Source: Escherichia coli
GTDB taxonomy: Bacteria > Pseudomonadota > Gammaproteobacteria > Enterobacterales > Enterobacteriaceae
Assembly (NCBI RefSeq): GCF_050920415.1
Contig: NZ_CP169309.1
Length of the DNA stretch: 64,000 nt
Reading direction: 5' to 3' (one strand)
Program-made: the position numbers
In this document: positions 45,879 to 51,800 of the stretch, one piece after another
How positions within the stretch are numbered: the stretch's first letter is position 1
How the letters are laid out: every line of letters begins with the position of its first letter

Positions 45879-48800
45879 TAAGCCTGACTTTATCTGATTT
45901 AAAAATGCCAGCCTTCGGGCTGGCATTTTTTATGGTTGAGTTACCAGCGACCGGAAGCACCGCCACCGCCAGAAGAACCGTCACCTCCGCTAAATCCGCC
46001 ACCACTTGAGCCGCCACCAGAACCGCCGCTGTCTGAATGATAACTTCTACCTGATGCTTTTTTCTGTGGGACACATAACCAGGTAAAGACCATAATGATG
46101 GTGAAAGTAAAAAAGAAGGAAAATACAGCAATGGAAAAAGTTTGATCGGAGAACAGGAATAAATCTATAAGATAGACTGTTGAAATACAAACACTGCTTT
46201 TAAATGCCCGACAAAAATTATTGCCTTGATGAAAAAACCAGAAAGGGAAGAACATCACTGCAAATACCCAAAAAATAGCAAAGTAGTAATGATCACTGGA
46301 AGACGCTGATTCACTTTCTGAAGGATTAGACGAATATTGGTGTTGTGAAGTGAGTTGGTTATTCAAAGCGATTATAGCTAACTCTCATCCCTTAGCTAAT
46401 TTTTGTTTTTTAAAGGCGGGTATCATGATGTTACGGATGATATTGCCAGCCAGAGCATCGGTTACCTTTTCTTCCAGCCCATAACCTACCTGAATGCGGA
46501 CAGTTCGATCCGACCAGGCAACAACGATCAGTATCCCATCATTACGTTTGGCATCTCCTAAACGCCAATTGTCAAAAACCCTTGTAGCATATTGTTCAAT
46601 AGAATCGCCTCCGGTGGATGGCACTATTAATACAGCGACCTGTGCCCGTGTTTTTTGTGTAATATCCTGCAGCTGTTGTGTCAGTGATTGTTGTTCAGAC
46701 GTGCTTAAGGTACCAGTAATATCGGTCACCTGTTGGCGCAGCTCCGGCACAGCAATTTGCTGGGCAAGCACAGGAAGGCACCATAAAGTGAGTAGAAAAA
46801 GGATTATACGCATAACGATCACCAACGGTCGGATGAACCGCCACCGCCAGAAGAACCGCCGCCACCGCGGAAAGAGTTTTTCGACGAAGAACGAGAATGA
46901 GCATTACGATTCCCCGTTTTCTTGTTGCTTTTATGCCCTGATCCCAGTTTAAGATTGCCAGTAAATTTGGCCACAATGATCAGCAGAACGATGCCAGCAA
47001 TGGTTATTGGGCCGATAAAATGATCAATTAGCCCAATAATTGTTGAGATGAACGCAATATCTTTATTACTGGCGAATACCAGGCACCATCCCACAACAAT
47101 TATCAGCAGCACGACAAACAATGAATTTCGTCCTGATTCACGAACCTGCGGAGCCTTCTTTTGTTTTTTCACTTTAGCGTTTTTATTTTGGGGGGCCAGC
47201 ATCATAGGAAATGTGCGGCATATATTAAAAACTACCGCGAGACGCTGCCAGCAGATTGCTGCGAAAAATAAACTAAAACAAACGACCGATACCCGCCGAA
47301 TGATGACATCGTCCTGAAAGGAGAAAAACCAGACCATAGGAGTAATCATCGATATCATCCATATGCCAGGCCCGGGACGGCTGGTAAATCGCCAGAGGAC
47401 AACGATGGCAACGATCATCAGTAATGTCCAGGCAAGACATGGCAGCGAGCGTTGCGGATTAGCAAACAGATGATTGGCTAAAGCATCCAAAGGGCTAAGA
47501 TTCGCTTTTATATAGGTAAACTGTGCGATGCCTTCAATTCCCTGCGTTAACCCGGAGAAGAGATTATTTTTTTGAATTCCGGTTGCATATGGTAATGAAC
47601 AATTTGCGCAGCTTGTTCCGGTGGCAGCATCTCTTCCAGTCCATGCCCAATCTTCATTGACGCCAGCCCTTCCGGCCAAACGACGAGAATTAAGATACCT
47701 TCGCCGTACCGCTTCTCTCCAACAGGTTTCCAGTGATATAACCCGTAGCTTTGCGAGGCTGCAAGTTTAATGTCTTTACCCCCAGTGGTCAGCGTTACCA
47801 ACACGGCAACCTGAAAGTGGTTTTGCTGCTCGAGAGTCTGTAATTGTTGAGTTAAAGCAGTTTGTTCTTCTGTCGTTAATGTCCCGGTTAAGTCAGTTAC
47901 TGAAGGCAATTGTTCAGCGAATGCCTGGAAACCACATAGCATCAGAAGTAAGAGAAAAATACGCATTTCAATTCCTTTTGTTACCAGCGCCCGGAGGCGC
48001 CACCGCCGCCAGATGAACCGCCGCCGCCGCTGAAATTATCATTGTCAAAAGAGGATGAAGAGGAAGATGACGACGATGATGAAGAACGCCTGGAGGCCGA
48101 GTTACTTCTTTCGTAATGTGACGGTCGGTTGGCACTGCGCATCGAATCCCGAACCTTTTTGCCGAAGGGGGTAAAAGCGATGGCGACAGCCAGGAACGGT
48201 GTGGCGAAGCAGAGTAATGTTGCGAGTACTCCCCAGCTTCCGCTGAAACCTGCTATAGGTAAAACAAAGGCCAGTACAATAGCTGTGAAGCAAATTAGTC
48301 CCAGCGTTTTGACATATCCTCTGGCGGAAATAAAGGTCAGTACTATTGCCCAGACTAACAAAGCCCACCAACCGCTAAAGGGCAAAGGGTGATCGGTCGG
48401 TGTTATCGCTTCTAAATTATTCCCCGTCAGACGATTATCAATATCGCTTATTCCCTTTTGCAAGCCGCCAGCAAGGTCGCCATTTTTAAATGCCGGAATA
48501 ATACTGTTGCGAATAATTTTCCCGGACTGCGCATCCGTAATAACGCCTTCCAGTCCGTAACCGATTTCAATACGCACGGTATGATCCTGCCAGGCGACTA
48601 ACAGTAGAACGCCATCATCGCGGTCTTTATCTCCGGGTTTCCAGCTATCGAATACCCGCGTTGCGTACTGCTCGATGGTTTCATCGCCTGTGGTTTCAAC
48701 CACTAACACGACCAGTTGTGCGTGGCTTTTTTGCGTCAGCTCTTTAATCTGATTGGTCAACGTATTTACTTCATCGTTCGTCAATTTGCCGGTTAAGTCA

Positions 48801-51800
48801 TTCACATACCTGGGTGATTCAGGCACTGGAATTTGTATGGCAAACACAGATGAACAAAAGAAAGCCATAAGGAAGATAAAATTTCGCACAGGACTTCCTC
48901 GCTTAATGAGCATTAGCATTCTGGCTAAAATCTATTGTTGGGGTTTTACTCACAGCGGCGACATCATCCGGTAAATAATTTTTCTTCGGTGTGTAATCCA
49001 TGACTTTTGCGGTTAACACTGCGGGGAATTTGCGGATAGTGACATTATATTGTTCGATGGCTTTAATATATCTTCCTCGCGCAACGGCAATTCGATTTTC
49101 ACTTCCTTCGAGCTGTACCATCAAATTTTGATAGAGTTCCTGGGCCTTTAGCTCAGGGTAACGTTCACTAATTATCGTTAACTGACCGAGAGTGCGAGAC
49201 ACCTGCGCCTGGGCCTGTTGCCAGACTTGTAATTTTTGTTCATCCCCCGGAGTTTGCTGAAGATCGCTACTGGCGCGATTAGCCTGACTACGTGCCAATG
49301 TTACGGCTTCCAGTACCTCTTGTTCATGGCTGGAATAACCTTTAATACTAGCGACAAGATTAGGAATAAGATCGGCGCGACGTTGATATTGATTTAATAC
49401 CTCAGACCAGGAAGCGTTAACCTGCTCATCATAGGTTTGAATATCGTTATATCCACAGCCTGATAAATTGAAAATAAATATAATTACGATGAATATTCTG
49501 AGCATGGTTAAATTCCTTTTAATTAATTCCTTAAAACATAATACGCCACTTCATTTTATTCTTTATGATCTAATCCACTTTTTGCCTTAAACCTGCCTGT
49601 AACAGAATGTTAATAAGACATGATTGTTGTGGCAGGATCTGCAATAATTAACAATTATCCACTTCACAGAGAATGCTATGCAGTACCCGATTAACGAGAT
49701 GTTCCAGACCCTGCAAGGTGAGGGTTACTTTACCGGCGTCCCCGCCATTTTTATTCGTTTACAGGGATGCCCGGTCGGCTGTGCCTGGTGCGACACCAAA
49801 CACACCTGGGAAAAGCTTGAGGATCGGGAAGTCTCCCTTTTCAGCATTCTGGCGAAGACCAAAGAGAGTGATAAGTGGGGGGCGGCGAGCAGTGAAGATT
49901 TGCTGGCTGTCATTGGTCGTCAGGGATACACCGCGCGGCATGTGGTGATTACGGGTGGTGAGCCTTGCATTCATGATTTGCTGCCACTGACTGACCTGCT
50001 CGAAAAGAACGGTTTTAGCTGCCAGATCGAAACCAGCGGTACTCATGAAGTACGCTGCACGCCGAATACCTGGGTTACCGTATCGCCAAAGCTGAACATG
50101 CGCGGCGGCTATGAAGTGTTGTCACAGGCACTGGAGCGAGCCAACGAAATCAAGCATCCAGTGGGACGCGTACGTGATATTGAAGCACTGGATGAACTAC
50201 TGGCAACGCTGACCGATGATAAACCACGAGTCATTGCACTGCAGCCAATTAGCCAGAAGGACGATGCCACACGTTTGTGCATTGAAACCTGTATTGCGCG
50301 TAACTGGCGTTTATCGATGCAAACACATAAATATTTAAATATTGCCTGATTAAACATTTATAAGCGTTATAAATGGGTGGAACCTGTAAAGACTTCCACT
50401 CATTTATATTCTTTGTCGCCTCTGAAAAAACTCCATTTTGCCCATTCTGGACTAATCATTATCATTCTCTACAAATTCTCTGGCGTTAATTTTTCGTTGG
50501 AGTGAAAATTATTGCAGTGAAGTTTGGTAGATTTTAGTGGGTATAGAGTTATTTTAAATATTTACTTTTTTAATCAATGGATTAAGTGTTCTTTAACATA
50601 ATGGATGTGTTGTTTGTGTGATCCTGTAAAGTTGGTAGATTGTGACTGGCTTAAAAAATCATTAATTAATAATAGGTTATGTTTAGAGAGTTCCCCACGT
50701 CAGCGGGGATAAACCGCTATACGAAGTTATTAGGTCCGAAGAGGAGTTGAGTTCCCCACGTCAGCGGGGATAAACCGTTTACGTGTTATCGCGCACCGGC
50801 GACGGTGTGGAGTTCCCCGCGCCAGCGGGGATAAACCGATTCAGCAAATAGCGAATTTCATAAATATGATGTGTTCCCCGCGCCAGCGGGGATAAACCAC
50901 CATATAACCCGTTATCTCTTTCTCAAGTTTTTATATTAGCTGTACTTGTAATAAGCAACATATCCACATAACACCTCATGTTCAAAATAGTTCCCCATGC
51001 CAGATAAGTTCACAATTATCGATACAAAAAATCAAATTTAATCAAAGTGTTATATGTATAATCCTTAAACCGTTAAGAAATTTTAATATATTATTTTTTT
51101 AATATTAATTAATGCCTGTTAATTTTTTCTTTAGAATAACAGTGTATTTTTTAAGCTTGTTATTCATTGATTAAGTAATAAATCTGGAAGTTTGTCTTTG
51201 TTTTGAGGCTAATGAGTGGTTTTACATAACCGCCTCTATACGCTGTTGATGAATAGTTCTTATGAATAAAGATATCCAGTTCATACTTTAAGTGAAAATT
51301 GATAAAGTGCGATTCGTATTGTCTTTTATTCTAAAGACATCGAGTGTAGTTAATATTCCTTGTAAAAACAGGGATAAACCGAACTAGTTAAAGTTTTTAT
51401 TATGTTCCCTGCATCAGCGGGGATAAACCGGACTTGTTATCATTTTTTAAGTTGTCGAACTTATGTTCCCCGCGCCAGCGGGGATAACCATTCAGGTATG
51501 TTCAGGCCGGGCAGTTTCCCGCCCGGTCTTCCTCACTTACGCATTCGACCAGCTCTGGATCGAATCTGCATTCCCCAACTCACCATGCATCACTTCATAC
51601 GATTTTTTCAGGATCACATCAGTGTGTTTGGTTAGGTCTTTGAAAATGCCTTTATTCATCGCGTCGTAGCGTTTGGCATTGCTCTCAATCGGCATAAAGA
51701 TATCTTTCACGCGAACCATTTTGTCGACAGCCGTTGCGTAATCCGGGTATAGCCCCAGACCTACCGCTGTATTAATCGCGGCCCCCAGACTTGCGCAACC

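Follow-up and report, generated by a model that had tools for sequence, protein, structure and literature searches.

A partly inactivated lemA operon with three TPM-domain genes between eno and queE in Escherichia coli

What occupies the chromosomal interval between eno and queE in Escherichia coli, and what could its genes do? We analysed a stretch of 64,000 nucleotides (nt) of contig NZ_CP169309.1 (RefSeq assembly GCF_050920415.1), hereafter the window, in which four co-oriented minus-strand genes fill this interval in the order lemA-P1-P2-P3; P1, P2 and P3 are our labels for three TPM-domain paralogues downstream of lemA. The original prediction, made from the DNA alone, had placed such a cluster here, had noted a single ygcG at the K-12 site, and had proposed a diversifying envelope-associated system. 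The open reading frame (ORF) list of the window agrees with the position and strand of the cluster, and K-12 does carry one ygcG, together with the 46-codon gene yqcG, at an eno-queE site without lemA, P1 and P2; the proposed diversification was not borne out. The locus is an Escherichia-specific form of a widespread, uncharacterised proteobacterial lemA-TPM operon and not a new system, and more than 1000 complete genomes already have the cluster in their annotation. The best explanation overall, to which we give a probability of roughly 0.45, is a decayed Escherichia operon of LemA and three TPM proteins that would act as accessory factors. In what follows, the domain assignments, the order and integrity of the genes, their distribution and the selection regime are matters of observation; the mechanism is one that we infer.

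Based on Pfam searches, all four genes were assigned to families. LemA matches PF04011 over model positions 1-149 of 149 (E=6.8e-48), and phmmer aligns its residues 22-178 with the T. maritima LemA four-helix bundle (PDB 2ETD; E=9.9e-33). The TPM family, PF04536, is matched by P1 (E=3.2e-40), by P2 in the repaired frame (E=1.5e-20) and by P3 with the stop codon replaced (E=7.5e-39), so that the assignments to LemA and TPM were upheld by the hidden Markov model (HMM) searches. In all three paralogues a signal-like segment stands at the N-terminus, the TPM domain is followed by hydrophobic helices, and the protein closes with a Gly/Ser tail whose last residues are GRW (P1 and P3) or DRW (P2). 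P1 fits the long YgcG-type architecture in full, while P2 and P3 fit it at the DNA level with deviations in the tail: Ser at -5 and Asp at -3 in P2, and Asp at -13 in P3. The scores against long-type and short-type HMMs were 161 and 84 bits for P1, 79 and 37 for P2, and 153 and 85 for P3. Across 58 long-type proteins the tail follows the consensus (G/F)FSGGGGxFGGGGASGxW-COOH, in which Gly is invariant at -15 to -14, -12 and -8 to -6 and occurs at -13 in 57 of the 58; the Asp of P3 falls at this last position. A Gly tail extension has also been noted in non-photosynthetic Psb32 homologues (bioRxiv 10.1101/2025.05.08.652833).

Table 1. Features of the eno-queE interval, with positions in the window and ratios of nonsynonymous to synonymous substitution rates (dN/dS); UTR, untranslated region; aa, amino acids
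Feature	Coordinates	Strand	dN/dS	Basis
eno	44583-45881	+	0	ORF list
Bidirectional intrinsic terminator, between P3 and convergent eno	45901-45931	both		RNA fold
P3, K-12 ygcG orthologue, inactivated	45941-46813	-	0.17-0.37	PF04536; RefSeq note 'internal stop'
In-frame TGA in P3, codon 143 (Leu in intact alleles)	46385-46387	-		allele comparison
P2, frameshifted pseudogene of the largest paralogue (382 aa if intact)	46819-47966	-	0.20-0.47	PF04536; RefSeq note 'frameshifted'
P2 frameshift site, A7 run 47567-47573 after C47574	47567-47574	-		alignment to ECOD1 allele
P1, YgcG-type TPM membrane protein, 302 aa, GTG start, intact	47981-48889	-	0.14-0.25 (0.06 for one near-identical pair)	PF04536
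lemA, 200-aa LemA-family protein, intact	48903-49505	-	0.06-0.18	PF04011; 2ETD
Divergent lemA-queE intergenic region, presumed operon promoter/5' UTR	49506-49677	.		alignment to K-12
queE	49678-50349	+	~0.02	ORF list

How much of this operon is still intact in the window? Read from the sequence, the gaps between lemA, P1, P2 and P3 are 13, 14 and 5 nt, and a Shine-Dalgarno-like sequence precedes the start codon of each of the four genes (AAGGAA, 8 nt 5' of the ATG, for lemA). The first two genes each correspond to one listed minus-strand ORF (48903-49505, 200 aa; 47981-48919, 312 aa). The P2 region is split between two reading frames, with an ORF of 139 aa (47547-47966) that overlaps one of 286 aa (46819-47679), and the P3 region into two in-frame ORFs parted by a single stop (46385-46825 and 45941-46366). 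The prediction of three TPM paralogue genes therefore stands for the architecture, which all three possess, but not for their integrity: P1 is intact, P2 is frameshifted and P3 is interrupted by a TGA. The coding capacity of this strain is thus LemA plus one complete TPM protein, P1. E. coli MFDS1022581 (NZ_CP169399.1) matches the window with 100% identity; it bears the same annotation, and its RefSeq table marks all three TPM genes as pseudogenes.

An intact P2 would encode 4-5 hydrophobic helices and a tail ending ...GGGGSSDRW. The gene measures 1148 nt in the window versus 1149 nt in intact alleles, one base being absent at 47573/47574 (reference GAAAAAAG, window AAAAAAAT); in the alignment, the ECOD1 allele reads GAATTCGAAAAAAGC and the window GAATTC-AAAAAAATA. 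The shifted frame stops after 139 codons at the TAA at 47547-47549. P2 is intact in N96, SMS-3-5 and 536, and all sampled alleles are in frame except that of the window, whose frameshift is private to one assembly, and that of P19_598, which has an independent frameshift at another site. The P2 lesion could be a homopolymer error in a single assembly, in which case the strain would really carry intact P1 and P2: the missing base abuts the A7 run, and the 99.2%-identical N96 allele is intact there. We consider such an artefact unlikely, since the lost base is the G before the run and the run length is unchanged relative to the ECOD1 allele, P19_598 shows that P2 loss does occur, and the stop codon of P3 cannot be an artefact, being common to N96. 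Programmed -1 frameshifting or transcriptional slippage at the A7 run was rejected as the default reading on sequence grounds, because N96 and nearly all sampled alleles are in frame and TTC AAA AAA ATA would be a poor slippery heptamer. An origin of P2 from the short second TPM gene of canonical operons, described below, was ruled out by its higher score against the long-type HMM.

In N96, an independent assembly, P3 is identical to that of the window, TGA included; the stop codon is therefore a real, inherited mutation. Read-through of this TGA found no support. The lesions of P2 (codon ~131) and P3 (codon 143) both lie at the end of the TPM domain, which may be a coincidence. The remaining ORFs of 139 and 142 codons (47547-47966 and 46385-46813) keep the signal peptide and most of the TPM domain, without the membrane part.

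P1 comprises a signal peptide, the TPM domain, three hydrophobic helices, a Ser-rich linker and the Gly-rich tail, and no stop interrupts its ORF before the conserved tail, either in the window or in 10 other alleles that were sampled (including ECOD1, N96, SMS-3-5, 536 and W2-5). In its AlphaFold2 (AF2) model, the TPM domain (residues 30-150) has a predicted local distance difference test (pLDDT) score above 90, helices span residues 171-190, 194-212 and 218-239, and the Ser-rich stretch is disordered. Positive charges come after helix 1 and helix 3, and a topology with a periplasmic TPM domain and a cytoplasmic tail would fit the sequence. The only beta sheet of the model is that of the TPM domain. 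At the C-terminus (47981-47998), residues 297-301 are modelled as a beta strand, with pLDDT of about 94 at 301-302, after a disordered segment at 255-293. The model has the alpha-beta-alpha fold of TPM domains: Foldseek matched it to 5ANP, 7TBR, 2KW7, 8C7I and 3PVH with probability 1.00, and placed it on BA41, Rhom172_1776, PG0361, Psb32 and TLP18.3. The RefSeq annotation (Prokaryotic Genome Annotation Pipeline) labels P1 as 'incomplete; missing C-terminus' in MFDS1022581, ECOD1, N96, SMS-3-5, 536, UTI89 and others. This label is at odds with the sequence, as the sampled P1 ORFs so labelled run 297-302 codons to the tail (47981-48217); the end of the RefSeq feature coincides with the end of the truncated 224-aa O157:H7 product WP_001243487.1, which we suspect to be the source of the label.

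The N-terminus of LemA consists of hydrophobic residues 2-14 followed by the lipobox L-S-G-C, with Cys17. Neither Gly16 nor Cys17 varies among 15 proteobacterial orthologues, and LemA of this lineage is therefore a predicted periplasmic lipoprotein. Most LemA proteins have an N-terminal transmembrane anchor, in place of which the LemA of the window has a lipobox; its membrane attachment is thus predicted to be by lipid rather than by a transmembrane helix. The residue after Cys17 is Gly and not Asp, which under the Lol sorting rule would not give inner-membrane retention.

When did the TPM genes multiply? Overall pairwise aa identity among P1, P2 and P3 is 35.5-41.3%, with 38-53% in the signal and TPM part and only about 30% in the membrane parts. 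The paralogues are therefore neither near-identical assembly duplicates nor products of a recent duplication. In E. albertii the same genes occur in the same order, lemA-P1-P2-P3, and Klebsiella has queE, lemA, one TPM gene and eno at the same site. Because of the low identity and the shared set in E. albertii, the expansion is old, as originally predicted, and on these sequence comparisons the triplication is Escherichia-specific. To place the operon more widely, one genome per species was scanned, giving 80 proteobacterial LemA loci, of which 61 had 2.5 kb or more of sequence on the downstream side. One or more TPM ORFs on the strand of lemA were present in 55 of these 61 loci, in agreement with the expectation that LemA and TPM genes are recurrent neighbours; exactly two TPM genes, one long and Gly-tailed and one short, were found in 41, and three in E. 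albertii only. The short TPM protein of these canonical operons measures about 165-190 aa without signal peptide, transmembrane segment or Gly tail, and is presumably cytoplasmic, to judge from these missing segments. Its gene is the third of the operon in two proteobacterial loci and about 30 others, and is missing from the Escherichia and Klebsiella loci.

The K-12 gene ygcG is the orthologue of P3 at the same eno-queE site, where the P3 of the window is a pseudogene. The two are 91.5% identical over 753 nt and 77.6% identical at the aa level, with 85% in the membrane and tail part and just 44% in the first ~70 residues of K-12 YgcG. We considered K-12 ygcG as a simple deletion chimera of P1 and P3 and rejected this origin, its first 70 residues being 37-39% identical to P1 and 43-49% to P3 alleles. 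In the alignment, yqcG sits where the 5' end of lemA lies in the window, and the sequence suggests that yqcG derives from the lemA 5' UTR and signal-peptide codons. K-12 is the extreme of the erosion: all that it retains is ygcG, the orthologue of P3, and yqcG as a relic of the 5' end of lemA. As further observations on this pair, BLAST aligns the region upstream of lemA with K-12 at 84.5% identity over 207 nt, entering lemA by 35 nt; after a 1-nt deletion the frames agree, with ...FTKIIFIF... in YqcG and ...FIVIIFIF... in LemA (49471-49560; K-12 locus 3444-3584). The ATG of yqcG aligns to an ATG-TTT-TAA mini-ORF 5' of lemA in the window.

How common is the operon, and which selection acts on it? 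Among the 5426 complete E. coli genomes surveyed, lemA was found in 1451 and P2 in 1102 (20-27%), every match being chromosomal and single-copy; carriers include O157:H7, UTI89, 536 and SMS-3-5. Only one other genome has an allele at least 99% identical over P2 plus P3, most being 92-97% identical, and the Eno protein is identical. P3 falls into two allele classes with synonymous divergence (dS) above 1, one of the window and K-12 type and one of the O157 and UTI89 type. Inactivation has recurred independently in other lineages: O157:H7 has a nonsense codon after residue 224 of P1 and an ATG-to-ACG change in lemA, W2-5 has lemA and P1 only, and insertion sequences (IS) lie within the locus or next to it in PEC414 (IS1), 23CRST013 (ISVsa5) and SMS-3-5, where an IS4 is placed between eno and P3 (IS entry at 1056-2402 of the extracted locus). 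The first two operon genes are probably impaired in the O157:H7 lineage. In the locus extracted from O157:H7, lemA lies at 6039-6659, where RefSeq extends the coding sequence upstream to a non-ATG start, and P1 at 5351-6025; P2 and P3 are intact in this lineage. The variation consists mainly of presence or absence, mosaic alleles and repeated inactivation, that is, the decay of an accessory locus, and the eno-queE interval of the E. coli chromosome is an accessory region that is polymorphic and eroding.

The dN/dS values of Table 1 were obtained by the Nei-Gojobori method, pairwise and in sliding windows. Positive selection, gene-wide or regional, was rejected: dN/dS is below 1 throughout except at P2 codons ~211-255, where a value of about 1.1 fits relaxed constraint. 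A gene-wide dN/dS below 1 for each of the four means that these genes have a function or once had one, and the regime is purifying to relaxed, not diversifying. These data bear directly on the idea of a diversifying envelope or conflict system, in which the genes would form a variable surface array or an anti-phage or anti-colicin array under antagonistic selection. The patchy distribution, the 7% divergence of alleles beside an Eno that is identical at the protein level, the two P3 classes, the replaced N-terminus of K-12 YgcG, the recurrent loss of function, the P2 segment just mentioned and the CRISPR (clustered regularly interspaced short palindromic repeats) arrays adjoining queE could all be read in its favour. 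We nevertheless regard it as highly improbable, given that gene-wide dN/dS is 0.06-0.47 and that synonymous divergence is high in queE too, so that the region carries old haplotypes rather than fast-evolving proteins. Moreover, the module is syntenic, single-copy, chromosomal and never on a plasmid, many Proteobacteria conserve it as a core-like operon although the genomic contexts are unrelated, and its proteins are predicted in the inner membrane or periplasm and not at the cell surface. A search of PADLOC-DB 2.0 gave no family at E<=0.1 for any of the four proteins, and a defence system was rejected for lack of a match.

The same figures speak to a further possibility, namely that the whole locus is functionally dead in this lineage and that lemA and P1 are open merely for lack of time. 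Two of the four genes are already broken, the P3 tail of the window also carries the Gly-to-Asp change at a near-invariant position, and lemA, P1 and P2 are wholly lost from most E. coli. This is very unlikely in our view: lemA and P1 are under clear purifying selection across alleles (dN/dS 0.06-0.25), lemA of the window differs from that of N96 by 3 nonsynonymous and 6 synonymous changes with no lesion, and LemA with one long TPM protein is a complete module in Klebsiella and Pseudomonas.

How could these proteins work? Searches of the literature on LemA plus TPM, ygcG and the LemA family returned no functional study of the lemA-TPM operon, in keeping with the earlier statement that LemA and TPM genes have no established function in E. 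coli. We propose that the TPM proteins would help to assemble integral complexes of the inner membrane or serve them as accessory factors. Each would bind a client complex through its variable transmembrane helices and cap the periplasmic face of that complex with its TPM domain, and the periplasmic four-helix-bundle lipoprotein LemA would be the common scaffold partner. The three paralogues, which differ in their membrane parts, could then serve different clients, with expression probably tied to envelope or stationary-phase stress. By analogy, a stress-linked accessory or assembly module for membrane complexes is put forward tentatively, at somewhat less than even odds.

Several precedents point in this direction. 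Psb32 behaves in this way on photosystem II (PSII): on an assembly intermediate it contacts the PSII core only via its transmembrane helix (bioRxiv 10.1101/2025.05.08.652833), and the TPM-fold chains of mycobacterial supercomplexes would support, by analogy, a role as accessory subunit. TPM proteins have been described as conserved partners of PspA membrane-stress systems (PMC11237479), LemA-like domains as membrane-associated four-helix scaffolds (bioRxiv 10.64898/2026.07.15.738315), and lemA has been reported to increase jointly with a TPM gene in a Flavobacterium mutant whose envelope is perturbed (PMC13236525). In K-12, the 46-aa YqcG is annotated as 'cell envelope stress response protein', a sigma-S chromatin immunoprecipitation peak lies in the equivalent of the lemA-queE spacer and over yqcG (PMC4447067), and PhoP-P binds DNA upstream of queE (PMC4974570). 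Taken together, these K-12 data may be a hint of stress regulation.

A number of points weigh against the accessory-factor explanation. The authors of TPM structures see no consensus on TPM function (bioRxiv 10.1101/2024.10.28.620569), and BA41 is described in a title as an ATPase/ADPase in vitro, which would favour an enzymatic role. The client complex is hypothetical, the enterobacterial operon being read from sequence, and the argument for stress regulation rests on data for K-12 yqcG and queE and not for lemA. The model leaves the invariant C-terminal motif unexplained. Most E. coli are without lemA, P1 and P2, hence any function is dispensable. In the spacer between lemA and queE, a scan for promoters gave no match to the sigma-70 consensus. 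A candidate PhoP box upstream of lemA was discarded: it is a single match with 2 mismatches at 49588-49604, and it is not evidence because the window holds 18 such matches versus 16.5 expected by chance.

The enzymatic role deserves separate consideration. Here the TPM domain would be a metal-dependent phosphatase or nucleotidase (ATPase/ADPase) of a periplasmic enzyme module, with nucleotides or phospho-compounds of the periplasm as substrates, and the part of LemA and of the membrane segments would be to anchor or regulate it. Among solved structures the closest are BA41 (TM-score 0.90, 34% identity) and BA42, for which the cited titles give ATPase/ADPase and phosphatase activity, and TLP18.3 has been reported with low acid phosphatase activity. 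All three paralogues also carry an N-terminal motif, V-x-D-x4-L-x3-E, in the loop region of the LMTP1 and Rhom172_1776 metal site. The reported activities are described as low, however, and the TPM-structure authors' statement of no consensus applies here too; TPM proteins are non-catalytic subunits in PSII intermediates and respiratory supercomplexes, and an enzyme would explain neither three paralogues that differ mainly in their membrane parts nor the invariant tail. We therefore think this role improbable. A modular trans-membrane accessory system, in which the helices would pick the clients, the GGGGASG-x-W tail would be a ligand of a TPM domain and strains would form an allelic series that runs from the full cluster via partial pseudogenes to the K-12 remnant, would account for the tail. 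The proposed tail contact draws on the AF2 model, because the C-terminal beta strand is confidently predicted and there is no beta sheet in the model outside the TPM domain; as a whole we find this version quite doubtful.

The remaining features concern the flanks of the operon. The G+C content is 43-47% within the cluster versus about 50-53% in eno and pyrG. The terminator hairpin has an 8-bp G+C-rich core stem (UGCCAGCC / GGCUGGCA) with the loop CGAA, and a flanking A run and T run lengthen the predicted helix to 13 bp; its folding energy is -20.3 kcal/mol (z=-5.98), and none of 200 shuffled sequences was equally stable. It was absent from the output of a simple terminator scan. This one terminator is common to the operon and eno. 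On the other side, the queE-proximal part of the lemA-queE spacer is identical to K-12, where it lies ahead of yqcG. A family of 72-nt direct repeats occurs at 45923-45994, 46801-46872 and 47963-48034, with 67-75% identity to the reference copy, and consists of the tail-coding 3' ends and gene junctions of P1, P2 and P3. These repeats could be substrates for the deletions and mosaics that distinguish strains. Between queE and ygcE we also observed two small type I-E-like CRISPR arrays (50682-50902 and 51396-51494), with the repeat core GTTCCCCGCGCCAGCGGGGATAAACCG at 61-nt spacing and 4 and 2 repeats, some degenerate. An annotated CRISPR array of K-12 and others is located at the same place, and the RefSeq table for MFDS1022581 lists none there.

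No function is agreed upon for LemA and TPM (DUF477), although both families are large and widespread, and YgcG is among the remaining unknowns of K-12. K-12 carries the remnant of a four-gene operon that is itself a lineage-specific triple version of a common module, which is a warning that K-12 by itself is a poor basis for deducing what ygcG and yqcG do. E. coli strains include natural knock-outs of each component and supply an allelic series for LemA/TPM function, making a genetic attack on this function straightforward. If the modular accessory version were true, this series could give the first LemA/TPM function in Gram-negative bacteria.

Among known systems, MamQ, a magnetosome protein of the LemA family, is related to the LemA of the window at the level of its NCBIfam model NF040966 (E=1e-25); the score of 90.3 bits is far below the equivalog cut-off of 250, and the locus has no magnetosome context. 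Psb32 and TLP18.3, which take part in the assembly and repair of PSII, share with P1 the TPM fold, an extracytoplasmic (lumenal) location and a C-terminal membrane helix as tether (Foldseek E ~2e-6). Psb32 differs in that it has a single transmembrane helix and lacks both a Gly tail and a LemA partner, and PSII, its client, does not occur in E. coli; against the Psb32 equivalog NF047379 (cut-off 160 bits), P1 scores 33.5 and P3 38.8 bits, and P2 gives no match. The TPM-fold chains 6ADQ_J, 8OVC_V and 8HCR_J of the mycobacterial CIII2CIV2 supercomplex (M. smegmatis, M. tuberculosis) match the P1 model with Foldseek E ~7e-4 and target-normalised TM-scores of 0.64-0.69; they are 14-16% identical to P1 and come from Actinobacteria. 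The best structural match, BA41 of Bizionia argentinensis (PDB 5ANP; TM-score target-normalised, root-mean-square deviation 1.8 A), has the same architecture of TPM domain, transmembrane part and tail as P1, its deposited 277-aa sequence ending ...GGGGASGGW, and belongs to a Bacteroidota organism. The canonical proteobacterial lemA-TPM operon resembles the locus in its gene for a LemA lipoprotein followed on the same strand by that of a TPM protein of about 300 aa with about three hydrophobic helices and a Gly tail; it usually combines a long with a short TPM gene, whereas Escherichia has three long ones and no short one. What is left in the strain studied here is the minimal pair of LemA and one long TPM protein, as in Klebsiella and Pseudomonas.

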